DNA from: Candidatus Falkowbacteria bacterium
GTDB lineage: Bacteria > Patescibacteriota > Patescibacteriia > Patescibacteriales > UBA12075
Reading direction: 5' to 3'
DNA length: 35,687 nucleotides
NCBI GenBank assembly: GCA_030600505.1
Contig: JAUVLY010000001.1
Coordinates: 1-35,687, forward strand
Shown here one piece after another: positions 4,941 through 32,326 of this stretch. Made by a program: the position numbers and the translations under genes. Position 1 is the first letter of the stretch. Each line of letters opens with the position of its first letter. The notes beneath the pieces are model-generated. The model did not search any database, was not told where the DNA came from, and worked only from the letters and a program-made list of their open reading frames with translations.

Positions 4941-4974
4941 AAGGCATTCGAGTAATACTACGAATGCCTTTTAA
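4941..4974 (+). terminator. operon-end hairpin
   Basis: AAGGCATTCG (4941-4950) pairs with CGAATGCCTT (4961-4970), then TTTT. A smaller hairpin ACCTCT/AGAGGT (4916-4938) precedes it. Confidence 0.55.
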
Positions 4975-5126: not shown

Positions 5127-5253
5127 ATTTGCTCCCGGGGTCGGATTCGAACCGACGACCAATTGGTTACACTTTACCCCCTGGTTTCCCAGAGGAGTGG
5201 ACTATATCATCATCCTTTGATTAAAATAAGGATGCGAGGCGCTTCCCCCTACC

Positions 5254-5290
5254 TCACCCCAGCCCTCTCCTTCTAAAGGAGAGGGGGTGA
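5254..5290. repeat. GC-rich nested palindrome (REP-like) inside the intron periphery
   Basis: CCCTCTCCTT (5263-5272) pairs with AAGGAGAGGG (5276-5285). Outer pair TCACC (5254-5258) with GGTGA (5286-5290). Same word family as 18211-18280. Confidence 0.6.
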
Positions 5291-5429
5291 AATAAGAGTA
5301 CTCTCTTTCGAGATAGTCTCTGAACCTGCCCCGATTGCTCGGGGATTGGCTGCTGATTACCTTGTCCATTAAAGACGATAAGAGATTTAGGCTTCCAGAC
5401 AGTTCACCTCGTTATTCGACCATGATTGC

Positions 5430-5738
5430 TCATGGAAGCTGCGTTAACCGTTCGTGCACTTCTCGATGGCAATTGGCGCATAATAATTCACATTTATCTA
5501 ACTCTTTTTTAACTTCTTTCCAGCTTCTGGTATATCCTTTAGCTGATATTCCGAAGTCTTTATTATTTTCATCAGTATGATGAAAATCAAGAGCTTGGAT
5601 GCATTTATTATACCCACAAATTGTACATTGAGCGCCTTTGTATTCAATTGCCATTCGGCGGATTTTTTTCCGCCGTTTTGTAACAGCCATTTTTAAATAC
5701 TCAGCACGATCGGCATAAGTACGATTATCCTTTGCCAT
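5430..5738 (-). CDS. HNH homing endonuclease (intron-encoded)
   Basis: 102-aa ORF with a Cys-pair zinc knuckle and HNH core: CTICGY...LDFHHTDENNKDFGIS...LLCANCHREVH. Lies entirely inside the intron. Confidence 0.85.
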   Translation of the reverse strand: MAKDNRTYADRAEYLKMAVTKRRKKIRRMAIEYKGAQCTICGYNKCIQALDFHHTDENNKDFGISAKGYTRSWKEVKKELDKCELLCANCHREVHERLTQLP

Positions 5739-5863
5739 ATTTTTTATAAGGAAAGGCGATTAGTGTACACAGCCAACTGCGCTACCGCTGCGCTACCCGG
5801 GAATAATTGATTGTTAATTTATGTTTATTTTAAACATAAAACCTGCCCTTTGGCAGCGCTTAT

Positions 5864-12734: not shown

Positions 12735-13376
12735 ATGCTAAAAATAAATAAAAGATTGATTCAAGTCAGCCTTGTTACAGTATTTGGCGTAAGCTTAGTA
12801 TTGTTACTTGGCCAATTGGCTGCAATTAAAGTAATTGAATCTAAAAACAAGCAAAATCTTGTAGCTTCTGTTGCAACAGACGAGATTATGCCCAGAGAGA
12901 TTATTTACACAGTCCAGAAAGGTGATTCAGTTTTTCGAATCGCGCAAAAATATAAGGTTCATCGCTACCAGCTTAGAGCGTGGAATAATATAGATATTAG
13001 TAACTATATTTATCCCGGCCAGCATTTAATAATCAAGCAAGTTGATTATGAGCCAATGGAAGGCCTGGCCAGTTGGTATGGCCCGAATTTTCATGGACGA
13101 AATATGGCCAATGGGGAAGTATATGATATGCACGCTATTGTCGTGGCTCATCGTACTCTGCCTTTGGGACAGAAAGTTTTAATTACAAACCTGGAAAACG
13201 GACGCTCAATCGTCGCTCCGGTATTGGACCGCGGCCCTTATGTTAAGGATAGTCAGGGTAATTATACCCGCGAGATTGACCTTTCTTACGCGGTAGCGCA
13301 AAAGTTAGGGACAATTAAAAAAGGCGTGGTTTCCGCTCGGATTGAGCCGATAAATGAGCCTTTACCGCAGGATTAA
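12735..13376 (+). CDS. rlpA: LysM domain + RlpA-like double-psi beta-barrel (septal ring lytic transglycosylase family)
   Basis: 213 aa. N-terminal TM anchor. LysM (YTVQKGDSVFRIAQKY...YPGQHLII). DPBB core ASWYGPNFHGRNMANGEVYDMHAIVVAHRTLPLG...LDRGPY. Confidence 0.8.
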   Translation: MLKINKRLIQVSLVTVFGVSLVLLLGQLAAIKVIESKNKQNLVASVATDEIMPREIIYTVQKGDSVFRIAQKYKVHRYQLRAWNNIDISNYIYPGQHLIIKQVDYEPMEGLASWYGPNFHGRNMANGEVYDMHAIVVAHRTLPLGQKVLITNLENGRSIVAPVLDRGPYVKDSQGNYTREIDLSYAVAQKLGTIKKGVVSARIEPINEPLPQD

Positions 13377-13381
13377 TGTTG

Positions 13382-13437
13382 TTTTTGCTAGCGCAAAAAG
13401 CCGCAACCGCGAATGCGGCACATGCGAATTTAAAATT
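13382..13437 (+). repeat. two-hairpin + RCGAAT repeat, copy A
   Basis: Hairpin 1 is TTTTTGC-TAGC-GCAAAAA (13382-13399). Hairpin 2 is GCCGCA...TGCGGC (13400-13419). Then ACATGCGAAT (13420-13429) and TTAAAATT. Confidence 0.7.
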
Positions 13438-13473
13438 ATATTTTACTAAAATTATTGATTATATATATAAAAA

Positions 13474-13501: not shown

Positions 13502-13530
13502 TTGACTTGTGTCAGCTATTTTGCTAGGAT
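13502..13530 (+). promoter_or_regulatory. promoter of 13572..13835 (paralogous to 13922-13950)
   Basis: TTGACT (13502-13507), 17 nt, TAGGAT (13525-13530). Similarity to the second copy extends about 25 nt further downstream. Confidence 0.55.
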
Positions 13531-13571
13531 GGGGGAATTAATGTAAACACAAATAATTGGGGAGGAAAATA

Positions 13572-13835
13572 ATGAAAATAGAAACTCAGATGGCGACCAT
13601 GGAAGGAAAACCGGGTGAACAAGAGGAAGCGCTATTGGCAAAATGGGACATAAAAAATGAACCAAGAAAAAGAATTGCTTGGAAAGCTAAAGTGATAGAG
13701 AGTATAGTCCATTTGCTGATTGAGCACGCTAGCCCAAAAGACTATATAAAAATAAACAAGGCAAAAGATAAAAAAAATAGGGGGGAAGCGAGCCGCAATA
13801 TAATTGCGAGAATCAGGGAGAGAGTCCAAAAATAA
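13572..13835 (+). CDS. hypothetical protein
   Basis: ATG at 13572 is preceded by GGGGAGGAAAA. 87 aa, charged, no motif recognised. Confidence 0.55.
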   Translation: MKIETQMATMEGKPGEQEEALLAKWDIKNEPRKRIAWKAKVIESIVHLLIEHASPKDYIKINKAKDKKNRGEASRNIIARIRERVQK

Positions 13836-13921: not shown

Positions 13922-13950
13922 TTGACTTGTCTTAGTTATTTAGATAGGAT
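13922..13950 (+). promoter_or_regulatory. promoter of 14040..14561 (paralogous to 13502-13530)
   Basis: TTGACT (13922-13927), 17 nt, TAGGAT (13945-13950). Confidence 0.55.
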
Positions 13951-13979
13951 AAGATAATTAATATAAAAATAAATTTAAA

Positions 13980-14039: not shown

Positions 14040-14561
14040 ATGCCGCAATATGCACTGAAATTACAAGGAAGTAATTGGGAAGAACTTGAAAAAAAATTGT
14101 CATTCAAGGGGTCAATAAAAAAGCTCTTTGAGAAAGCTAAAGTCAAATTTACCAAATGGGAGGCTGAAAAAATCTTTTTCACTGATCCGGGAAATAAAGT
14201 TGGTAAAACAATAACTATGACAGGTTTTGTTTTCATGGACCCGGAAAAAGTTGGCAACTGGCAACCCATATGTTATGTTCATTTAAAAAATATGCGACCA
14301 AAGACAACAGAAAAGATAACCATCATGCCGTGTGGTAAAGTAATGAATTCGACTGATTTACCTGGGGGCAGGAAAATTAAAGCCGGGGAAAAATTTGATA
14401 TTATTGAGGCAATAAGAATTAAAAACGATTATGGTTCTGGTCCTTTTCTTTTGCTGGGGATTGAATATAAAAAAAAGCGATATAGACAAAATTTTAAATT
14501 TTTTCGTTTTGTAGATTATAACGGAAAAGAAAAGTATATTAACAAAGAGTATTGTTTTTAA
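14040..14561 (+). CDS. hypothetical protein
   Basis: 173 aa. RBS AAGGAGG 6 nt before the ATG. Strong terminator follows. No motif recognised. Confidence 0.6.
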   Translation: MPQYALKLQGSNWEELEKKLSFKGSIKKLFEKAKVKFTKWEAEKIFFTDPGNKVGKTITMTGFVFMDPEKVGNWQPICYVHLKNMRPKTTEKITIMPCGKVMNSTDLPGGRKIKAGEKFDIIEAIRIKNDYGSGPFLLLGIEYKKKRYRQNFKFFRFVDYNGKEKYINKEYCF

Positions 14562-16694: not shown

Positions 16695-17049
16695 TAGAAC
16701 CTCCTTATTGTTTGATAATTAATGTTTGTTTTAATAATAGTTAATTTAAGCACAATTTTTTGGTTTTAGCAAGCCTTATCTTTCCCGGGCAGGGGAGATA
16801 GGGTATAATAGGAATTACAACTGAATATAGGGGCCTACGCTTGTGGATAAGTGCTAGGTAAGTTTGTTGTTGGCTAAAAATTGTAATAATTAACAAAAAT
16901 ATCACTTAATAATTGGTTAGAAATTAGCCAATTTTTTTTATTTTTTAAATATAATTATAATAATTTGAAAAAATAGGCTGTTTATACTATAATAATAGTA
17001 ATACTATAGCACTATAGCATTATGGTGTTATGGGGGCGAAGAAACGTGG

Positions 17050-17100
17050 TTTGACCTATCGGTCAAAGCGGCACTACGAATGCCGCACATGCGAATAAAT
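17050..17100 (+). repeat. two-hairpin + RCGAAT repeat, copy B
   Basis: Hairpin 1 is TTTGACC-TATC-GGTCAAA (17050-17067). Hairpin 2 is GCGGCA-CTACGAA-TGCCGC (17068-17086). Then ACATGCGAAT (17087-17096). Both stems differ from copy A by compensatory changes. Confidence 0.7.
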
Positions 17101-17162: not shown

Positions 17163-18203
17163 ATGCTAGGATCAGCAAAATTAAGGAATTTTGGTGTTGG
17201 TTTTTTAATAGTCGTTTTACTATTAACGTTTTTTAATATTCCAACAAGTATCGCGGCTTATTCCAATGTATCTGATACGATCTCTGATTCCCGGGTTTCT
17301 GTTTCTGCCAGCCATGTTATAACTTTTACTACGGCCAGTGATATTGGCGCTAATGGTTATTATGAAATTACCATGGCCCCGGAATACGGCGATATTAAAG
17401 AGGCCTCGTGTTCCGGGCCAAACGTTACCGTCTCTACCACTACCGAAACCGTGCGCTGTACTTATAGTATTTCACCCGGTGCCGCCACTACCACCACGAT
17501 TTATGTTGATAATGTTAGCAATCCTTCCGCAACTGGCCGCTACAATGTTTTAATTGGCTCATATGACTCTGGTGATACCGATCTGGAGCACGGCGACGCG
17601 GCGGTTTATATAACAGACGCGCTTGAAGTCTCAGCCTGGATCGGCAGCATTTTGAATTTTGAAATGACAAACGAGAATGTGAGCGAGGTTAATGGCGTAA
17701 CCATTACCGGCTCATCAACGCTTGATACCCTGCCTTTTAACGAATTAAATATCAGTGCATCTTCTACTTTGGCTCAGACTTTAACTATGCAGACCAATGC
17801 CAAGAACGGTTTTTCCTGTACCGTGCAGCAGGATCAGGAATTAACCAACCAATCAAATCATACGATTAACAGCTTTGATAATTCGCCGGATGGGACCGGC
17901 TCTTCCACGTCTCCGCATACTTGGAATGCACCAACAGGAGAATTAAACGCCTATCATACCTATGGCCACCTGGGTTTAACGACCGATGATTCCAGTCTAA
18001 GTTCTTTGGATTTTAGCGGTTCAAAATATGCCGGCTTAAACGGCACAGAGCCTTTAGAGGTTTTTTATAATAATGGGCCGGTAATTCATCCGGTCATTGG
18101 CTCGGGCAAAGCCCATATTGCCTATACAATTGAGATTTCCGCCCTGCAGGAGGAAGGCGTATATAATTCAAATTTAACTTATGTTTGTACCGGGAATTAT
18201 TAA
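17163..18203 (+). CDS. secreted Thr/Ser/Asn-rich surface protein, unknown function
   Basis: 346 aa. N-terminal signal/anchor (FGVGFLIVVLLLTFFNIPTSIAA). Composition suggests all-beta. No catalytic motif. No SD sequence. Confidence 0.6.
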   Translation: MLGSAKLRNFGVGFLIVVLLLTFFNIPTSIAAYSNVSDTISDSRVSVSASHVITFTTASDIGANGYYEITMAPEYGDIKEASCSGPNVTVSTTTETVRCTYSISPGAATTTTIYVDNVSNPSATGRYNVLIGSYDSGDTDLEHGDAAVYITDALEVSAWIGSILNFEMTNENVSEVNGVTITGSSTLDTLPFNELNISASSTLAQTLTMQTNAKNGFSCTVQQDQELTNQSNHTINSFDNSPDGTGSSTSPHTWNAPTGELNAYHTYGHLGLTTDDSSLSSLDFSGSKYAGLNGTEPLEVFYNNGPVIHPVIGSGKAHIAYTIEISALQEEGVYNSNLTYVCTGNY

Positions 18204-18442: not shown

Positions 18443-18612
18443 ATATTAATAATAAAATTCGCATCCTGTTTTCTATTTTCTATTTTCTGCTTTCTTTAAT
18501 GTTGATATAAAAATAAATTTATATAAAGCCCGAGATAAGAAGCTCAGACAAATGATTTATTTTAGAATAAAATATTAAAACAAAAATAAAGACCTAAATA
18601 AAAATAAATATT

Positions 18613-18648
18613 AAAGGCCTGGTTTTTTGTCATTTAAACCAGGCCTTT
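18613..18648 (+). terminator. hairpin terminator-like element
   Basis: AAAGGCCTGGTTT (18613-18625) pairs with AAACCAGGCCTTT (18636-18648). Confidence 0.5.
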
Positions 18649-18654
18649 ATGTTA

Positions 18655-18705
18655 TTTTTGCTAGCGCAAAAAGCCGCACTACAAATGCGGCACATACGAA
18701 TTTAG
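18655..18705 (+). repeat. two-hairpin + RCGAAT repeat, copy C
   Basis: TTTTTGC-TAGC-GCAAAAA (18655-18672). GCCGCA-CTACAAA-TGCGGC (18673-18691). ACATACGAAT (18692-18701). Confidence 0.7.
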
Positions 18706-18784
18706 ACTTTAAACACCCTAAGCTCTTTGGCACGGGAGACGGTAATAACTACTTGTAGTGCAGTGTAGTAAATTATATTTATTT

Positions 18785-18830
18785 ATTCGCATGACCCGCA
18801 TTTGTAGTTGCGGGATGTGCGAAGCACGAT
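18785..18830 (-). repeat. two-hairpin + RCGAAT repeat, inverted copy C'
   Basis: The reverse complement reads GTGC-TTC-GCAC, CCCGCA-ACTACAAA-TGCGGG, TCATGCGAAT. It faces copy C across about 80 bp. Confidence 0.6.
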
Positions 18831-18880
18831 GACATAAAGTTGGCTGAAATGGCGGTTTTAGGTTATAATATATTATAGTT

Positions 18881-20863
18881 ATGGATAGTGGATTAAAAGA
18901 AACAAATAATCGGTTTAAACACATCCCGGCTATGGATTCAGGGGAATTTCAGGCATTTTTAAATAATAGTGATGATATTATTATTGCCACTGACCCGGAC
19001 GGGACGATCAAGTTTGCCAATTTAAAGGCTAGGCGGATGCTTGGGTATTTGGCCTATGAGCTGGAAGATAAAAAAATAATAAATATTGTTAAGGATGATC
19101 ATGGGTCATACGCCGAGGAGGTAGTGGCCAAGGCGCGGCGCGGCCAAATAGTAAAGGATATTAAGCTGATATTGGTTGGCAAGCAGGGTCAGAAGATCAT
19201 GGTCGAAGGATCGCTTACTCCCTTATTTGAACACCGGGAATGTACTTCTCTTTGGGCCAAGTTCACGACTGTTACGCCGGACGCTAGTACGGACAAGGAG
19301 ATAAAGAAGCTGCGGCAGAAGCGTTTTGAATTAGAGGCATTAAAGTCATTATCTGACCGTTTAACCAATATTTTTGACTTAAGGGAAGCGATCAAAACCA
19401 TTAATAATTATTTGTCCGAAGTGCTTGAATATAGTTCAGCAGCGTATTTAATATTCAGCCCCGAGCATGATGATGGTTATGTGTTTATAAATTATCTTAA
19501 AGATAAGGTGGGCAAGAAGTACATTGAGGCAGTTAAAAAAGACATCAGCAGTCATTTGACAAATGAGAGGCACAAGGAAATCAAACAGATAATGGACAAG
19601 TTTACGGATATTAAGCCCGAGATACACGGGTCCAGGCTGGATTCCGGGAGCAGAAGCGTTCCCCGCTCGCAAGTAATTTTTCCCCTTAAGCTGGGGGCTG
19701 CTACCTTGGGTTTAATCCACATTTCTTCGAGTAAGCCAAATCGCTATTTGGGCGGCACCAATTGGCTGACCGATGCGATGGTCGTTACCTTTGTTCTTTT
19801 TGTGGTTCGTTTACAGATGGTGCTTCGGGCCCAGCGCAGCCGGACCGAGACCCTGGTGCGTAGTTTGTCGGACGGTATTATTATGTTTAATGACCAGCTA
19901 AATATAACTTTAATGAACGAACAGGGCCAGGAGTTTACCGGTCTGGATCCGAATCTGGCTTCGCTTAGGGATTTTTTTGCCTTATTCCCAAAAGCGAACC
20001 TGGAGTCTAAGACCACTAAGATGCTGGTGAGCGGCAAGACCGTACATGTTGATAATGTTCATTTAAGAAGTAGGCATTATGAGATTTTTTTTACTCCGGT
20101 TAAAGATAACCAGGGCAAAGTAGTTAATGGCGCTATTGTTCTTCACGATATCACCCGCCTAAAAGAGATTGACCAGATGAAGACCGATTTTGTTTATATT
20201 GCTTCGCACCAGCTCCGTACCCCGCTTACCGGAATAAAGTGGTTTATTAAATTGCTTGAAAAGGAGATCATTAAGAACGGCCAAGTTACTACCAGAGAAA
20301 AAGAATGCCTGGAACAGATTACCTTATCCAATAACATTGTTATTAAGCTGGTTAATGACCTTCTTAATGTCAGCCGGATAGAGACCGGTCATAAGTTTAA
20401 GATCGAGAAAACAAGTTTTGACTTTTCCGTGCTAATGAAAGAGATATTAAAAGACAATGTTGTTGGTATGGAAGAAAATAATATTACTGTTAAAGTTAAG
20501 TGCCAGCCAGCTAAGCTTAGACTCAGGGCCGACCGAACCAAGGTTAGGCAAGTAATTCATAATTTAATTACCAATGGGGTAAAATATTCTCTGTCCGGCG
20601 GCACAGTATTGGTTAATGCTAAAGCAGATAAAAAGCAAGTTATAATTAGCGTGAAAGATTCAGGCATTGGCATCCCCAAAAATCAGCAGCAGGATATTTT
20701 TTCTAAATTTTTTCGGGCCGACAACGCCAGTGCCAAGGGCTTGCCGGGCAGCGGCCTAGGGCTCTATATGGCCAAAGCGGTTGTAGAGGCCCATGGCGGT
20801 AAAATGAGCTTTAAATCCATTCTCAATAAGGGCACTATTTTTACCTTTACCTTACCAAGATAA
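18881..20863 (+). CDS. PAS-domain sensor histidine kinase
   Basis: 660 aa. PAS-like N-terminus (DIIIATDPDGTIKFANLKARRMLGY). A second PAS (SLSDGIIMFNDQL...). H-box ASHQLRTPLT. N box NLITNGVKYS. G boxes DSGIGIP and GSGLGLYMAK. No clear TM segments. Confidence 0.85.
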   Translation: MDSGLKETNNRFKHIPAMDSGEFQAFLNNSDDIIIATDPDGTIKFANLKARRMLGYLAYELEDKKIINIVKDDHGSYAEEVVAKARRGQIVKDIKLILVGKQGQKIMVEGSLTPLFEHRECTSLWAKFTTVTPDASTDKEIKKLRQKRFELEALKSLSDRLTNIFDLREAIKTINNYLSEVLEYSSAAYLIFSPEHDDGYVFINYLKDKVGKKYIEAVKKDISSHLTNERHKEIKQIMDKFTDIKPEIHGSRLDSGSRSVPRSQVIFPLKLGAATLGLIHISSSKPNRYLGGTNWLTDAMVVTFVLFVVRLQMVLRAQRSRTETLVRSLSDGIIMFNDQLNITLMNEQGQEFTGLDPNLASLRDFFALFPKANLESKTTKMLVSGKTVHVDNVHLRSRHYEIFFTPVKDNQGKVVNGAIVLHDITRLKEIDQMKTDFVYIASHQLRTPLTGIKWFIKLLEKEIIKNGQVTTREKECLEQITLSNNIVIKLVNDLLNVSRIETGHKFKIEKTSFDFSVLMKEILKDNVVGMEENNITVKVKCQPAKLRLRADRTKVRQVIHNLITNGVKYSLSGGTVLVNAKADKKQVIISVKDSGIGIPKNQQQDIFSKFFRADNASAKGLPGSGLGLYMAKAVVEAHGGKMSFKSILNKGTIFTFTLPR

Positions 20864-23319: not shown

Positions 23320-24984
23320 ATGGTTAATCCAATTCTTACAAAAAAAGAAGACAATCCGGTTTCTACACCCAGCAAAAACGCCAAGCGGCTTTTTCAGGCG
23401 GTTTATTACGCGCAAAATCCACCGGCTAAAGAGCAAAAAGATATTCCGCGGCTTTCGGTTTCCTCCGTGGTTTCAAAAATGGCGTTTTATTACGAGAAGA
23501 TCCGTAATACGGTTGAGTATAAAGAAGAGCATTTACTTAGAAAAAACGCGATTGAACGCATTTTGAAAAGGCAAATTGTAATTGAAGGCGCCATTAGCCC
23601 GGGGGCAAAGGGCGCGGAAATTGCCGAGCATTTACTGACCGAGCTGATTCGGGCGGGGTATTTACCGAATAATACTATTCCGGAAACAAAGATCAGTGAA
23701 TTCGGCCAGGTGATTGATAAGTATATATCGCTCAGGCGCTACGCGGTCGAAGACTATAAGTCATTGCAAATTAAAGAGCGTAACGCGCTAACCAATTGGA
23801 TCATGGCTTTGGCGGCCAGCGATATGGAGGAGCGCTTGGGGCGCAGCCAGGTTGATTTAGTAGTTATTGACTATATGTACCAGACCCTGCTTGACGATAT
23901 CAGCCTGGAGGATGCCCTTGAGTACGAGATTGACCGGGAGATTCAGATATTTGTCGCCATTCATCGCTCATACCTTAAATTTGACAGGGAGATGCTAAGT
24001 TTTATTTTGTTAAAATATTTTCATCCCAATTGGCTTAAAGCCAATGAAGAAGAAATCGCTGATGTCGGGAAAAACATTCTGGCTATTAAAAAATCAATTG
24101 AAGGTCAAATTGACCACCCTTTGACGCCTCAGCTTAATCGGATTGTCAGCCGCTATACCGTATTTTTTCAAATTTTAAATGACGTAATCGCGAATAATCC
24201 GGTTAAGGTTTATGAAGGTTTTTTTAAAGATCCGGTGGCCTTCTCTCGCATGATCAAGCAGGCGGCCGGTAAAAAGTACCACGATGCCAAGTCCAAGCTG
24301 TGGCGGGCGGCTGTCAGAAGTATCCTTTATATTTTTATTACTAAATCATTTTTTGCTTTTATTTTGGAGATTCCGGCTACCCGTTGGTTTGGTGAAGAGA
24401 TCAATCCAATATCTTTGTTTATTAATGTAACCTTTCCGGCGGTTTTACTTTTCTTAATTGTATTATTCTCCCGTATGCCGAGTGAAGATAATTCACTAAA
24501 GATCATTGAAGGGATTAAGGAAATAGTGTTTGAAGAAAACCAAAGAAAAGAGCCCCACCGCTTGCGCCAGCCGGCTAAGCGCAGTGCGTTTTCCAATTCA
24601 ATGTTTGGGATAATTTACGCGATTACTTTTTTCCTGTCTTTTGGCGCGGTTGTCTGGGTCTTAAACGCGATTCATTTTAGCGTTGTTTCAATAATAATTT
24701 TCCTTTTCTTCCTGGCCTTGGTCAGTTTCTTTTCCATCCGTATCCACAAGAACGCCAAAGAGCTCTTAATATTACCACCCAAGGAAAATGTATTTAGTTT
24801 TATCGCGGATTTTTTCTACGTCCCGATTGTTAGCGCCGGTAAATGGTTAAGCGAGAATTTCTCTAAGGTTAATGTCTTTGTTTTTGTCCTTGATTTTATT
24901 ATTGAAGCGCCATTCAAGGTGTTTGTTGCCATTACCGAAGAATGGACCAGGTATGTTAAGGAAAGGAAAGATGAGATAGTTTAA
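23320..24984 (+). CDS. large membrane protein, unknown function
   Basis: 554 aa. Soluble helical N-terminal roughly 330 aa followed by about 5 TM helices. The start is 1 nt after the preceding stop. Confidence 0.6.
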   Translation: MVNPILTKKEDNPVSTPSKNAKRLFQAVYYAQNPPAKEQKDIPRLSVSSVVSKMAFYYEKIRNTVEYKEEHLLRKNAIERILKRQIVIEGAISPGAKGAEIAEHLLTELIRAGYLPNNTIPETKISEFGQVIDKYISLRRYAVEDYKSLQIKERNALTNWIMALAASDMEERLGRSQVDLVVIDYMYQTLLDDISLEDALEYEIDREIQIFVAIHRSYLKFDREMLSFILLKYFHPNWLKANEEEIADVGKNILAIKKSIEGQIDHPLTPQLNRIVSRYTVFFQILNDVIANNPVKVYEGFFKDPVAFSRMIKQAAGKKYHDAKSKLWRAAVRSILYIFITKSFFAFILEIPATRWFGEEINPISLFINVTFPAVLLFLIVLFSRMPSEDNSLKIIEGIKEIVFEENQRKEPHRLRQPAKRSAFSNSMFGIIYAITFFLSFGAVVWVLNAIHFSVVSIIIFLFFLALVSFFSIRIHKNAKELLILPPKENVFSFIADFFYVPIVSAGKWLSENFSKVNVFVFVLDFIIEAPFKVFVAITEEWTRYVKERKDEIV

Positions 24985-25213
24985 TTAGGTTTTAGCTTTT
25001 AGGTTTTAGCTTTTAGGTTTTAGCTTTTAGGTTTTAGCTTTTAGCTTTTAGGTTTTAGGTTTTAGCTTTTAGGTTTTAGCTTTTAGGTTTTAGCTTTTAG
25101 GTTTTAGCTTTTAGGTTTTAGGTTTTAGAGTTGACCTATAACCTACAACCTATAACCTATAACCTACAACCTATAACCTACAACCTATAACCTAAAACCT
25201 AACACCTAACAGT
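24985..25213. repeat. roughly 230-bp palindrome built from tandem 14-16-nt units
   Basis: The left arm is about 9 units of TTAGGTTTTAGCTTT (24985 to about 25130). The centre is AGAGTTGACC. The right arm is units of CTATAACCTACAAC (25137-25213). Arms are about 80% complementary by eye (13 of 16 in the aligned unit). Confidence 0.8.
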
Positions 25214-25219
25214 TTAAGG

Positions 25220-26483: not shown

Positions 26484-27917
26484 ATGGATAAAAATAAATT
26501 TTATATAACTACAACCCTGCCGTATGTGAATGCCAATCCGCATATTGGTTTTGCGGCTGAGATTATTCGGGCCGATGTGCTGGCCAGATTTGCCCGCATG
26601 CAGAGCAAGGATGTATTTTTTAATACCGGTACGGATGAACATGGATTAAAACTATTCACCAAAGCCAAAAAGCAGGGAATTGAAGTAAAAAAATATTGTG
26701 ATAAATACGCGGCTAAATTTGATAATCTTAAAAAAGCGCTTAATTTGAGTTATGATAATTTTATCCGTACCACTGACGAGCATCACATAAAAGCGGCGCA
26801 GGAATTTTGGAAACGATGCGATGTCAACGGCGATATCTATAAAAAAAATTATAAGATGAAATATTGTATTGGCTGTGAATCAGTTAAGACCGATTCTGAG
26901 CTTGATAAAGGTGAATGTCCTGATCACCCGGGTAAAAAGATAGAGATCATTGAAGAAGAAAATTATTTTTTCAAATGGTCAAATTATCAGGAAAAGCTAT
27001 TAAAATTTTATAAAAAAAATTCTGATTTTGTTGTTCCAGGCCATAGATTAAATGAAATAAGAAAATTTGTAGAACGAGGGTTGGAGGATTTTAGTATTTC
27101 AAGATTAAAAAGCAAGATGCCATGGGGGGTGCCGGTTCCCGGGGACGATGAACATGTTATGTATGTCTGGTTTGACGCTTTGGTTAATTATGTATCCGCT
27201 TTGGGCTGGCCCAATGAAGACGGTAAATATAAAGAATTTTGGCCAGGCATGCAAGTGGCGGGTAAGGATAATCTAAGGTTCCAAACAGCCATGTGGCAAG
27301 CCATGCTCATGTCTGCCGGCCTGCCTAATTCTACGCAAGTGCTTATTTTTGGTTTTATAACTTCAGGCGGACAAAAAATGAGCAAATCAATCGGCAATGT
27401 TGTTAACCCGCTTGATCTGGTTGAGCGGTATGGTACAGATGCAACGCGTTATTATCTACTGGCTGAGCTTAAGCCTTTTGAAGACTCAGATTATACAAAA
27501 GAAAAATTTGAAACAAGGTATATGGCCGATCTGGCAAATGGCATTGGTAATTTAGTTGCCCGTACTTCAAATTTGCTTGAAAAGAATGAGATTGAGCTGG
27601 ATATAAAACCAGGAAGCGACAAGGAATTGTTAGGAGCAATAAATTTACAAATGCAAAAATATTGCTTTGATGAAGCTTTAAAAGTACTTTGGGCAAAGTT
27701 AAGGGAAATGGATGAGTTTATTACAGCCAAAGCGCCCTGGAAAATAAAAGATAAAAATGAAATAAAAAAAGTATTAGAAGTAGTTGCTCAGAATATTTTA
27801 AATGTGTCTGTGTTATTACAGCCTTTTATGCCAGCCACTGCCGATAAGATAATGAAGCAATTTAGTGAGCAGCAAATCAAAAAAGGCGAGTCGTTATTTC
27901 CGCGATTAGAAAATTAA
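26484..27917 (+). CDS. metG: methionine--tRNA ligase (short form, no C-terminal tRNA-binding appendix)
   Basis: 477 aa. HIGH-type motif NPHIGF. Zinc knuckle CIGCESV...CPDHPG. KMSKS motif present. The start is 1 nt after the NUDIX stop. Confidence 0.9.
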   Translation: MDKNKFYITTTLPYVNANPHIGFAAEIIRADVLARFARMQSKDVFFNTGTDEHGLKLFTKAKKQGIEVKKYCDKYAAKFDNLKKALNLSYDNFIRTTDEHHIKAAQEFWKRCDVNGDIYKKNYKMKYCIGCESVKTDSELDKGECPDHPGKKIEIIEEENYFFKWSNYQEKLLKFYKKNSDFVVPGHRLNEIRKFVERGLEDFSISRLKSKMPWGVPVPGDDEHVMYVWFDALVNYVSALGWPNEDGKYKEFWPGMQVAGKDNLRFQTAMWQAMLMSAGLPNSTQVLIFGFITSGGQKMSKSIGNVVNPLDLVERYGTDATRYYLLAELKPFEDSDYTKEKFETRYMADLANGIGNLVARTSNLLEKNEIELDIKPGSDKELLGAINLQMQKYCFDEALKVLWAKLREMDEFITAKAPWKIKDKNEIKKVLEVVAQNILNVSVLLQPFMPATADKIMKQFSEQQIKKGESLFPRLEN

Positions 27918-27922
27918 CGTTA

Positions 27923-27977
27923 TTTTCCCTGGCGGGAAAAGCCGCGCTACAAATGCGGCACATACGAATTTAAAATT
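27923..27977 (+). repeat. two-hairpin + RCGAAT repeat, copy D
   Basis: TTTTCCC-TGGC-GGGAAAA (27923-27940). GCCGCG-CTACAAA-TGCGGC (27941-27959). ACATACGAAT (27960-27969) then TTAAAATT. It sits between the metG stop (27917) and the next ATG (27994). Confidence 0.7.
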
Positions 27978-27993
27978 AATTATTTAAAAAATT

Positions 27994-29412
27994 ATGAACA
28001 AAACAAAGATCATTTCATTTATTCTTGTTTCCAGCTTTGTTATGGCTGGTTTTGCCGGAGCCACCTGCACTACTTGCGGAACTGAGGAAACCCCCGTCAG
28101 TAGCGTTAACTCTATTACCCTTACAGGAGAGGGTGCGAATATTAGCTGGAGTGTGGATGGTTATTCAAGCAAGGGTTTTAAAGTGTCCTGGTCAAAGAAT
28201 TCCGGGCCGACTTATCCGACCAGGAGTGGGGACAAATATCATTATTATTCCAGTCCCAGCCAAACTTCAGACACTCTAACGGCTTTTTCCGGTGACGGCA
28301 CATATTACGTGCGGGTTTGCGAATATTTAAGTGGAAAGTGTGGCGTTTATTCTAATGAGATCAGCGTAGTATTAGGTGATGGCACAAGCGATGAGCCAGT
28401 CGCCTGCACTATGGAATATGATCCGGTTTGCGGCAAAGACGGCAAGACTTATTCAAATAAGTGCATGGCCGAGGCCGCCGGGACATATAAAGCTTATTAC
28501 GGCGAATGTACAAATACCTCCGGTGGAGTTGAGTCAATTACTTTAATAAGCAAAGGAGAGTCAGCAATAAAATGGAGCGTAGACGGATACAGTACTAAAG
28601 GCTTTAAAGTCGTTTGGTCTAAGAACGAGCATCCGACATATCCGACCAGAGAGGGCGACAAATACAAATATTTTTCTGACCCAAATTATTATTACACAGT
28701 TTTGTCTGCTTTTTCCGGTGATGGTACATACTATGTCCGCGTCTGTGAATATCTGGGCGGTGCGTGCGGCGTGTATTCAAATGAAATAGCAATTACACTG
28801 GAAAGCGACGCACAGATAAAAGACATAGAGGAAAATGCAAAAACATTAGTTAATAATGATTTGGAGAAAATTTTGGCTGAGCTCCAGGAGCTAAGAAATT
28901 TGGTTAGGGAACAACAGACGCAAATACTTCACTTGCAAAAGCTGCTTATTGGCGTTGCGGCCGTAACCGACGCCATGCAGAATTCAATTAACAGTTTTAT
29001 CACCTATGGCGTGGATGACAATACTAAAAGATTGGGCGAAGGGGAGCGGGCCGCAGTAATGTATTCTTTTAAATCTGCTTTTGGCAAATTGCCGGAAGAT
29101 GAGACGGAAATGGCGGACGCGATCAAAATCGCCAATGGCCGCTGGCCAATTAAAATCAGTGAGGCCGCGGAAAACAAGGCTAAGGAAAAATTTGAGTTTA
29201 TTTACAAACGCGCGGCCAGCGCGGGCCAGGTAAACGATGACGCGGCCGTGGTAGTCATGGCCTATGGCCTGCGGCAAAAAGCCGAGAACCGGAATCTTAA
29301 TTCAGAAAAAAACGGCCTAAAGATTTTTAAAGATATTTATGGTTATCTACCGGAATCAACCGAAGATTGGAATATCTTGCAAGCCATAACTTATAGTGGC
29401 GCTACAAGATAA
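27994..29412 (+). CDS. secreted protein: two paralogous beta-domains flanking a Kazal-like domain, plus a helical C-terminal region
   Basis: 472 aa with a signal peptide. Repeat 1 at 28105-28377 and repeat 2 at 28528-28803 share ...WSVDGYS.KGFKV.WSKN..PTYPTR.GDKY.Y...FSGDGTYYVRVCEYL.G.CGVYSNEI. Kazal-like CTMEYDPVCGKDGKTYSNKCMAEAAGTYKAYYGEC lies at 28405-28509. Confidence 0.75.
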   Translation: MNKTKIISFILVSSFVMAGFAGATCTTCGTEETPVSSVNSITLTGEGANISWSVDGYSSKGFKVSWSKNSGPTYPTRSGDKYHYYSSPSQTSDTLTAFSGDGTYYVRVCEYLSGKCGVYSNEISVVLGDGTSDEPVACTMEYDPVCGKDGKTYSNKCMAEAAGTYKAYYGECTNTSGGVESITLISKGESAIKWSVDGYSTKGFKVVWSKNEHPTYPTREGDKYKYFSDPNYYYTVLSAFSGDGTYYVRVCEYLGGACGVYSNEIAITLESDAQIKDIEENAKTLVNNDLEKILAELQELRNLVREQQTQILHLQKLLIGVAAVTDAMQNSINSFITYGVDDNTKRLGEGERAAVMYSFKSAFGKLPEDETEMADAIKIANGRWPIKISEAAENKAKEKFEFIYKRAASAGQVNDDAAVVVMAYGLRQKAENRNLNSEKNGLKIFKDIYGYLPESTEDWNILQAITYSGATR

Positions 29413-30031: not shown

Positions 30032-30055
30032 ATTAATCGCACGATTAATCGCACG
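30032..30055 (+). promoter_or_regulatory. tandem 12-nt direct repeat upstream of the AbrB-like ORF
   Basis: ATTAATCGCACG occurs twice (30032-30043 and 30044-30055). The second copy runs into ACGAAT (30053-30058). It ends 6 nt before the ATG at 30062. Confidence 0.4.
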
Positions 30056-30061
30056 AATTAT

Positions 30062-31096: not shown

Positions 31097-31154
31097 CCCC
31101 GTTAAGGACGCTGGGTGTTAAGTTTCTACTATCCAGCCTCTTTAACGGGGTTTT
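31097..31154 (+). terminator. hairpin terminator
   Basis: CCCCGTTAA (31097-31105) pairs with TTAACGGGG (31142-31150), then TTTT. Confidence 0.55.
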
Positions 31155-31245
31155 AGTTGCACGCGAATAGCGCAAACGCGAATGCGCCCACACGAATACA
31201 CATAAAATTATATTCGCGGCATTCGTGTACATTCGCGTATTAGTG
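31155..31245. repeat. RCGAAT/ATTCGY palindromic cluster (copy E of the family plus an inverted partner)
   Basis: GCGCA...TGCGC hairpin (31170-31187) and CCACACGAAT (31188-31197), followed by the inverted TATTCGCGGCATTCGTGTACATTCGCG (31210-31237). It ends 3 nt before the tatD ATG. Confidence 0.6.
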
Positions 31246-32297: not shown

Positions 32298-32326
32298 GCG
32301 AATATTTAGGTTTTATTCGCTATAAT
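32298..32326 (+). promoter_or_regulatory. putative atp operon promoter with an overlapping GCGAATA/TATTCGC palindrome
   Basis: GCGAATA (32298-32304), 9 nt, TATTCGC (32314-32320), directly abutting TATAAT (32321-32326). An alternative upstream promoter is TTGACT (32262-32267), 16 nt, TACAAT (32284-32289). Confidence 0.45.

Follow-up and report, generated by a model that had tools for sequence, protein, structure and literature searches.

Enzymes of the HUH/Y1 class, of the IS200/IS605-RAYT (REP-associated tyrosine transposase) type, need neither terminal inverted repeats nor target duplication. Rickettsia palindromic elements (RPEs) reportedly span about 100–150 bp and lie in-frame in essential genes, where they are translated. 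The genomes of bacteria of the candidate phyla radiation (CPR), or Patescibacteria, are very small and streamlined and are generally regarded as repeat-poor. Repetitive extragenic palindromic (REP) sequences are defined by an unpaired GTAG or CGTC tag at one palindrome end (Di Nocera et al. 2013, PMC3733652). Here, we analyze a ~50-base, two-hairpin repeat in a 35,687-nt stretch of DNA from Candidatus Falkowbacteria bacterium (contig JAUVLY010000001.1; hereafter, the window), which carries four copies on the plus strand (A, B, C and D) and one on the minus strand (C'). Its consensus consists of (A)GTTAT, hairpin 1, hairpin 2 with the loop CUACRAA, and the tail ACATRCGAAT. The family is real, with both stems covarying strongly, and the element probably represents a selfish, non-autonomous piece of mobile DNA of ~45–55 nt, similar to REP sequences and RPEs and patchily distributed in CPR bacteria and phages. 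As far as we found in the literature, this family of small palindromic mobile repeats is previously undescribed; full-text searches in REP, MITE (miniature inverted-repeat transposable element), palindromic and structured-RNA contexts returned no account of a repeat of this kind from CPR bacteria.

Like REP sequences and bacterial interspersed mosaic elements (BIMEs), the repeat pairs short G+C hairpins with a conserved motif that lies unpaired beside them, occurs in many dispersed copies of either orientation, which are mainly intergenic but in part clustered or intragenic, retains its structure while the stem sequence drifts and contains the tetranucleotide CTAC/GTAG. Hairpin 2 and its flanks span ~30 nt, in keeping with the 20–40-bp imperfect palindromes in many dispersed copies that characterize REP sequences. 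The element nevertheless falls outside the REP definition because CTAC/GTAG lies within the hairpin-2 loop and not at an end, where the tag is instead the 10-mer ACATRCGAAT. It further differs by a second, variable hairpin before the core and by its hosts, CPR bacteria and their phages; moreover, phmmer found no RAYT in the sampled DNA (genome fragments of 8 kb each); genomes with REP sequences carry such a gene, usually flanked by them. RPEs, in turn, are also palindromic mobile repeats of reduced genomes, retained in-frame in essential and otherwise conserved protein genes and translated as an extra peptide, here of 15–19 amino acids. The present element is shorter (45–55 nt), has an invariant loop and tail, and also occurs in phages and in hosts other than Rickettsia; the sequences seem to be unrelated, the likeness is one of behavior, and we do not claim RPE membership.

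The ends of IS200/IS605 elements and palindrome-associated transposable elements (PATEs) show strand-specific subterminal hairpins without terminal inverted repeats or obvious target duplication, as does our repeat, which also inserts beside a short A/T-rich word and forms nested copies directly 3' of CTAC, comparable to TTAC, the target word of IS608. The miniature derivatives are characterized by similar hairpins near both ends, which TnpA recognizes, and by insertion 3' of a fixed tetra- or pentanucleotide. In contrast to the similar left and right ends of IS608, however, its two hairpins are unlike each other, the target word is inconsistent (T-A-H), and neither TnpA nor TnpB was found in the sampled DNA. 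MITEs are likewise small, non-autonomous, multicopy and mobile, and can be common to hosts and viruses. The repeat fails their definition because it has no general terminal inverted repeats: the GTTAT... and ...CGAAT ends are non-complementary, and ATTCGC...GCGAAT is confined to a subfamily with the hairpin-1 arm TTCGC and does not covary. Finally, the 7-nt loop CUACGAA, on a stem of 5–6 bp, is identical to that of tRNA-Arg(ACG), a substrate of the deaminase TadA, but acceptor, D and T arms are missing from the element, the loop is CUACAAA in half of the copies, and neither ARAGORN nor Rfam called it a tRNA. We record this loop identity as an observation only, with mimicry remaining putative. 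TIGR-Tas arrays, the only CPR repeat hairpins that our literature searches returned, were set aside, since the present repeat occurs as scattered single copies and its tandem arrays lack spacers.

Covariation of both hairpins across genomes

Foreign copies were gathered with a pattern that fixed only the loop and tail and left the stems free (CTACRAATGNNNNNCATRCGAAT), taking one genome per species. This yielded at least 95 stretches, 89 of which stem from metagenome-assembled genomes (MAGs) labeled Falkowbacteria, Moranbacteria/Moraniibacteriota, Parcubacteria or Patescibacteria, or from third-party annotation bins with other labels (unverified); the other six are isolated, hairpin-less matches in unrelated bacteria. 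The element is present in at least about 39 Patescibacteria MAGs (for example, CAWFCE01, JBAZPX01 and JAPLXG01), plus a group of phage contigs. We then searched the window, with filters off, using a covariance model built solely from 22 copies of other genomes (R1). Exactly five matches were obtained (34.9–57.6 bits; E values of 4e-9 to 7e-17), followed by a next match at an E value of 0.8, and a broader model (R2) returned the same five with 47.7–60.4 bits. Elsewhere, model matches comprised 113 copies in 643 kb from ~39 MAGs, and the window holds five in 36 kb, or about one per 7 kb. An earlier note on this DNA had proposed a structured repeat family and called for a covariance-model search; recovery of the five window copies by models from other genomes shows the family to be real. 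Rfam 15, applied to the whole window at gathering thresholds, reported only a group I intron elsewhere and no family for the element; an E-value scan of 18600–18860, around C and C', gave only far sub-threshold chance matches.

Hairpin 2, the conserved core, is built from a variable G+C stem of 5 bp, an R-U closing pair and the 7-nt loop CUACRAA, and is followed by the single-stranded tail, in which the word UACGAAU is present again. Hairpin 1 is variable (4–16 bp), was found in 81 of 95 copies chosen irrespective of it and gives way to unstructured sequence in a few lineages. Within the 113 model matches, 97.4% of stem cells were paired as compared to 73.0% in column shuffles (none of 500 reached the observed value), and 237 cells were changed on both sides versus 67.7 in shuffles. 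Compensatory changes affected nine out of 11 pairs, and pairing amounted to only 27–55% when partners were slid by 1–3 columns. As this alignment was fitted to the covariance model, alignment-free checks are important. With registers set by the search pattern alone, 90% of the hairpin-2 stem positions paired, compared to 44% after a shift by one, and at least ten different arm pairs were observed (for example, CCCGC/GCGGG, GCCGC/GCGGC, GCCCC/GGGGC, CCGGC/GCCGG, GCGAC/GTCGC and GCCAC/GTGGC). RNAalifold, run on a plain MAFFT alignment, recovered the same hairpin-2 stem with 15–37 double changes per pair. Compensatory changes are hence strong across ~110 aligned copies from ~40 genomes, bearing out the earlier proposal of a fold that is selected in RNA or single-stranded DNA. 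A long-range helix between the 5' arm of hairpin 1 and the tail (ATTCGC/GCGAAT), which appears in the minimum free energy (MFE) structure of C', was rejected; its two sides show no covariation, the tail remaining constant while hairpin 1 changes.

Hairpin 2 is closed by A-U in 53 copies and by G-U in 52 others. G.U outnumbered A.C by 30:1 in copies lying sense to genes and by 17:7 in antisense copies. As G.U is in excess in both groups, the fold can be assigned to a single strand of the element, regardless of the direction of transcription.

Dispersal, mobility and in-frame copies

About 88% of the copies are intergenic, and their orientation relative to the coding strand is balanced (50 sense, 47 antisense, 16 mixed). 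The earlier note had regarded a lack of strand bias relative to transcription as evidence against its inference; the balance observed here counts against a transcript-level host signal, but leaves the structure unaffected. The GTTAT end usually lies 0–3 nt from a gene border, namely the stop of the upstream gene for sense copies, such as A and D, or the start of the downstream gene for antisense copies. The tail side borders an A+T-rich spacer of 13–60 nt that is partly conserved within subfamilies, and some copies carry an AT-rich 3' extension. The 115 flanking proteins fell into 91 clusters and, given such diverse neighbors, a gene-specific leader or riboswitch was ruled out. A sense-strand intrinsic terminator was also rejected, as hairpin 2 is followed by ACAURCGAAU and neither hairpin by a U-tract. 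Replication-strand bias was set aside: GC skew and coding strand agree in 87 of 98 cases, which makes replication and coding effects inseparable. In other genomes, clusters of copies adjoin dnaK, rpoB, rpoC, rpoD, alaS and infA-rpsM; their neighbors were core genes only, with no transposase gene nearby.

Several observations point to movement of the element. In related CPR contigs, the 994 kb surrounding MetRS homologues (54–71% identity) gave no match with R1 and a single weak one with R2, which rules out a universal CPR signal. One orthologous spacer, flanked by the same two genes, holds the element in sense orientation in one genome (L033) and antisense in another (L006). At four loci in two genomes (L029, L069, L039, L094), nested copies are inserted directly after CTAC of another copy's hairpin-2 loop. 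Spacer-less tandem arrays were found in several other genomes. One of these (L022, 2036–2199) comprises 3.6 copies of a 46-nt variant without hairpin 1 and begins at the stop codon of an open reading frame (ORF) ending ...GFRCVK; the same hairpin-1-less variant also forms the 45-nt in-frame gltX insert of another genome (L027).

The element further occurs in phage contigs with terminase, portal, capsid and ParB-methyltransferase genes. Comparing such contigs from IMG/VR (L176/L186, L180/L188/L199, L181/L189/L200, L184/L190, L196 and L197) revealed three sites that are filled in some contigs and empty in others with 93–99% identical flanks. The site upstream of terS is filled in three phage contigs and empty in four, the empty form reading AAATTAAT-GGC-AAAACAAGTATG and the filled form carrying a 47-nt unit (AGTTATTCGC...ACATGCGAAT). 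The second, upstream of a gene for a 178-amino-acid head protein, is filled in one contig by an exact 51-nt insert between TTTTATAA and ATTATG, and the third, between the capsid gene and an 81-amino-acid gene, is filled in one contig in antisense orientation. Among the three, one shows a possible, imperfect target duplication (TTATAA/TTATAG) and the terS site none. The 5' flank of copies generally follows only a loose T-A-H.

Copies within genes encode 15–19 extra residues in conserved proteins, which appear as gaps relative to solved homologues in the PDB. This applies to GluRS (gltX in L027; a 15-residue insert, EGPD[LKRAATNGAHANEIR]MGGEYGPY), an ABC ATPase (15 residues), ribosomal protein uL3 (rplC in L040 and L063), the CCA-adding enzyme (15 residues in the GGxVRDLLL...DxD region) and LysRS (lysS), and further in-frame candidates exist, including a folC-like gene. 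The in-gene loci are L027 (3047–4570), L014 (4105–5091), L055, L040 (1809–2747), L063, L042/L088, L068 and L064. All in-gene copies are sense and use one frame, yielding the peptide RATN(A/G)(A/G)HAN, which speaks for translation of these copies, with this peptide as the only one tolerated. Between the orthologous uL3 copies of L040 and L063, hairpin 1 differs by a U-A to C-G and a U.G to C-G change, so that pairing is kept and the peptide altered.

The window copies and their surroundings

The window has a base composition of 32–42% G+C, and nearly every gene lies on the plus strand, including metG, rsmI, tatD and genes for ATP synthase subunits a and b, a PAS histidine kinase and a LysM/DPBB protein (Pfam for some). 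The nearest relatives of its MetRS are on metagenomic contigs, with at most 71% identity. On re-reading, the sequences at 13382–13437, 17050–17100, 18655–18705, 18785–18830 (inverted) and 27923–27977 were as the earlier note had them, and its stems held: copies A and C share TTTTTGC/GCAAAAA as hairpin 1 and GCCGCA/TGCGGC as hairpin 2, copy B has TTTGACC/GGTCAAA and GCGGCA/TGCCGC, respectively, copy D has TTTTCCC/GGGAAAA as hairpin 1, and copy C' has CCCGCA(A)/TGCGGG as hairpin 2. In copy D, hairpin 2 reads GCCGCG/TGCGGC with a G.U closing pair. The tail, too, was as described (ACATGCGAAT or ACATACGAAT, and TCATGCGAAT in C'), and MFE folding of A, B, C and D gave precisely the two hairpins. The loop CTAC[AG]AA, claimed to be constant, is indeed found in B, C and D, but not in A, which has the 8-nt loop ACCGCGAA. 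Likewise, all plus-strand copies had been placed directly after a stop codon, which applies to A and D only; B and C lie 628 and 445 nt past the previous long ORF.

Copy A (13376–13431, plus strand; 34.9 bits with R1, 47.7 bits with R2, and MFE fold) starts 1 nt past the TAA stop of a LysM/DPBB (RlpA-like) gene at 12735–13376 (Pfam). Its GTTGT lead precedes hairpin 1 (13382–13388/13393–13399, loop TAGC), hairpin 2 (13400–13405/13414–13419) and the tail (ACATGCGAAT, 13420–13429). An AT-rich 3' extension (TTTAAAATTA...AAAATTAT; 13432–13455, plus strand) is common to A and D, as seen from a direct-repeat family (D6) relating 13412–13455 to 27952–27995 with 84% identity. Copy B (17044–17098, plus strand; 44.9 and 51.6 bits, fold z score −2.7) comprises hairpin 1 at 17050–17056/17061–17067, hairpin 2 at 17068–17073/17081–17086 with the loop CTACGAA and the tail at 17087–17096; a promoter scan placed a promoter-like site (16965–16993) ~50 nt upstream of the copy, which itself precedes the gene at 17163 by 64 nt. 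Copy C (18649–18703, plus strand; 55.4 and 59.5 bits, z score −2.6) is immediately preceded by a terminator-like hairpin (18615–18650) and consists of hairpin 1 at 18655–18661/18666–18672, hairpin 2 at 18673–18678/18686–18691 with the loop CTACAAA and the tail at 18692–18701. Arranged tail-to-tail with C at a distance of 79 nt, copy C' (18783–18835, minus strand; 41.0 and 53.9 bits; inverted repeat I16) has a short hairpin 1 (GTGC TTC GCAC) ahead of hairpin 2 and the tail, and lies upstream of a promoter-like site (18840–18869) and the histidine kinase gene at 18881. Copy D (27917–27971, plus strand; 57.6 and 60.4 bits, supported by folding and ORF analysis) begins at the TAA stop of metG (26484–27917) and, together with its 3' extension, occupies the entire spacer to the ATG at 27994; hairpin 1 spans 27923–27929/27934–27940, hairpin 2 27941–27946/27954–27959 with the loop CTACAAA, and the tail 27960–27969. 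The settings thus differ from copy to copy, that is, a 3' untranslated region (UTR) for A, a position downstream of a promoter-like site for B, after a terminator-like hairpin for C and before a promoter-like site for C', and an intercistronic spacer for D.

Whereas five copies stood up to both models, the sixth reported previously (E, at about 31155–31200) did not: R2 assigned it 11 bits (E value of 0.76), R1 did not match it, and its fold was no better than that of shuffles (z score +0.44). The region (31148–31236, no strand assigned) contains six RCGAAT/ATTCGY words in mirror arrangement and one hairpin-2-like stem, GCGCA/TGCGC; at best, it may be a decayed remnant, perhaps of a pair of copies. 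The longer word CACATRCGAAT occurs four times in the window versus 1.08 expected, a count reached in none of 100 shuffles. Bare RCGAAT, in contrast, is not enriched (39 occurrences versus 43.3 expected), and the additional RCGAAT words listed earlier at 4941–4970, 18452–18463, 30053–30058 and 32298–32320 are therefore at chance level.

In copies A and C, the antisense (minus-strand) reading of hairpin 2 (13400–13419 and 18673–18691) runs directly into TTTTTGC, the complement of the hairpin-1 A-run. On that strand, the T-run variant has the score of an intrinsic terminator, which would act on antisense transcription, and T-run copies lie mainly sense to genes (16 versus 5 antisense).

Other features of the window include a gene directly downstream of copy D (27994–29412), which encodes a secreted Kazal-domain protein with an internal duplication (28207–28361/28633–28787; 426-nt period). 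A 53-nt block, duplicated at 13502–13554 and 13922–13974 with 77% identity and carrying a promoter-like TTGACT-17-TAGGAT, precedes a small ORF (13557–13835) with one copy and the ORF at 14040–14561 with the other, neither of which has a Pfam match. Between the ORF at 23320–24984 and rsmI (25220), a long microsatellite (24985–25217) of ~20 7-nt units (TTAGGTT/TTAGCTT), followed directly by its inverted complement (AACCTAT/AACCTAC), forms an imperfect palindrome with arms of ~84 nt. Finally, on the minus strand at 5130–5800, a group I intron (Rfam RF00028, 5178–5509, 79 bits) splits a tRNA gene and holds an HNH-like ORF (5430–5738) with the motif LCANCHREVH. Of the two exons, the 3' one finishes with ...GGTTCGAATCCGACCCCGGGAGCA near 5131 and the 5' one is located around 5760–5800; ARAGORN made a candidate call of tRNA-Thr(TGT) for some joins of the exons and none from the raw window.

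Nature of the element and competing explanations

Taken together, the earlier observation was largely correct, and both the selected fold and the REP-like nature inferred from it are supported. Of the three candidates put forward at the time, a REP/BIME-like element fits best, as the repeat is dispersed, mostly intergenic, present in both orientations, clustered, nested and mobile. A putative recognition site for a protein would be compatible with the invariant loop and tail, while a transcript-stabilizing or processing signal would be at most secondary, given that copies are antisense as often as sense, occur inside ORFs and are polymorphic between near-identical phages. For a selfish mobile repeat, the strand-fixed fold and the lack of terminal inverted repeats and of consistent target duplication point to recognition as single-stranded DNA. 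A trans-acting enzyme would recognize hairpin 2, its loop and the tail on the folded strand, most plausibly in this single-stranded form, the nearest model being an HUH/Y1 enzyme of the IS200/IS605-RAYT type. After insertion, copies would be co-transcribed with their neighbors and tolerated, with any effect on mRNA, such as 3'-end protection or, in the T-run variant, blocking of antisense transcription, being putative and secondary. The phages that carry the element presumably infect CPR hosts.

Several points weigh against a purely selfish, transposase-driven repeat. The loop and tail are conserved across distant CPR classes, and in-gene compensatory changes alter the peptide; such conservation is not obviously expected of purely selfish DNA and could mean a host function or gene conversion between copies. 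The G.U evidence comes mostly from one position, the closing pair, which might reflect a base-specific contact instead of a pair. General terminal inverted repeats and a consistent target duplication are missing, and at two of the three polymorphic sites the insertion is not clean, a few bases having been replaced. A phmmer search with the PDB-verified IS608 TnpA and E. coli TnpA_REP returned no homologue among 7,848 ORFs (from the 8-kb genome fragments), and Pfam identified no transposase among the element-flanking proteins of the window, the other window ORFs having been read by eye only. As no Y1 transposase gene was found, the enzyme may be of another kind. In a bolder version, which we regard as conceivable though rather improbable, the repeat would represent a new class of hairpin-guided mobile element, whose tRNA-Arg-like CUACRAA loop and repeated UACGAAU are read by a non-Y1 enzyme, perhaps a co-opted tRNA- or single-stranded DNA-binding protein, and which shuttles between CPR bacteria and phages and stays foldable even inside uL3, aminoacyl-tRNA synthetases and the CCA-adding enzyme.

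Alternatively, the repeat could be a cis-acting RNA signal of the host, at which a conserved RNA-binding or processing protein stabilizes, cleaves or insulates transcripts at gene borders, with copy number reflecting usefulness. The position of the GTTAT end, 0–3 nt from a stop or, on the other strand, a start codon, would suit such a signal, as would copies in highly expressed core operons (dnaK, rpoB/C, rpoD, infA-rpsM), the loop and tail shared across CPR classes, pairing kept via compensatory changes and the terminator-like antisense strand of the T-run variant (hairpin 2' then TTTTT). However, half of the copies are antisense to their neighbors and yet show the same-strand G.U pattern, no U-tract lies 3' of either hairpin on the sense strand, and the five window copies sit in differing contexts (3' UTR, 5' UTR, intercistronic and before a promoter). 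The near-absence of the element from ~1 Mb of related CPR DNA, the filled and empty sites in 99%-identical phages and the copies in ORFs translated in one frame likewise speak against it. We therefore consider this explanation unlikely as the primary one: polymorphism, balanced orientation and intragenic copies would be left unexplained, and a role as stabilizer, processing site or, in the T-run variant, antisense terminator is possible as a secondary one.

Two further explanations start from the invariant parts of the element. Hairpin 2 might mimic the anticodon arm of tRNA-Arg(ACG) and be read by TadA (A34 deaminase), ArgRS or an anticodon nuclease, serving as a decoy, as a site at which Thr ACG would be edited to an Ala-like ICG in translated copies, or as a means of using the enzyme as a host factor. 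The loop size, the U at position 2 and the purines at positions 5–7 are invariant, the loop corresponds to a high-efficiency motif of TadA-containing editors (bioRxiv 10.1101/631721), and the candidate adenine is the first base of a conserved Thr codon in translated copies. We nonetheless give this possibility little credence, as about half of the copies read CUACAAA and lack the G of the UACG core, while the recurrence of UACGAAU in the unpaired tail suggests a sequence-specific reader over a tRNA enzyme; moreover, the sampled loci contained no tRNA-Arg(ACG) gene for comparison. Serving a chromosomal process at the DNA level, as an extruded or single-stranded hairpin (for example, a priming or single-strand initiation signal, a site-specific recombination site or a phage N4-type hairpin promoter), would agree with a strand-specific fold independent of transcription direction, with the invariant loop and flank and with the position just upstream of terS in phages. 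A housekeeping site of this kind, however, would not be missing from related genomes, vary between near-identical phages or sit in coding regions in one reading frame, and GC skew is not consistently related to the orientation of the copies beyond its relation to the genes; we regard this explanation as highly improbable.

The mobility of the repeat, its spread over CPR lineages and phages and its in-frame insertions go beyond what the earlier note expected, and together with the invasion of essential genes and the sharply defined recognition features they make it of interest beyond a genome-specific repeat. The invariant loop and tail and the free stem render the search for the mobilizing enzyme tractable, a question common to RPEs and many REP families, and the exact loop match to a TadA substrate bears on RNA editing in CPR bacteria. 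The element also accounts for odd inserts of 15–19 amino acids in conserved CPR proteins, which annotation or structure prediction would otherwise misread, and its presence in both phages and CPR bacteria makes it a possible sequence marker for tying uncultured phages to CPR hosts. Contrary to the usual picture of repeat-poor CPR genomes, a structured selfish element that reaches about one copy per 7 kb in the window, enters essential genes in-frame and is common to phages would indicate active genome dynamics in CPR bacteria.

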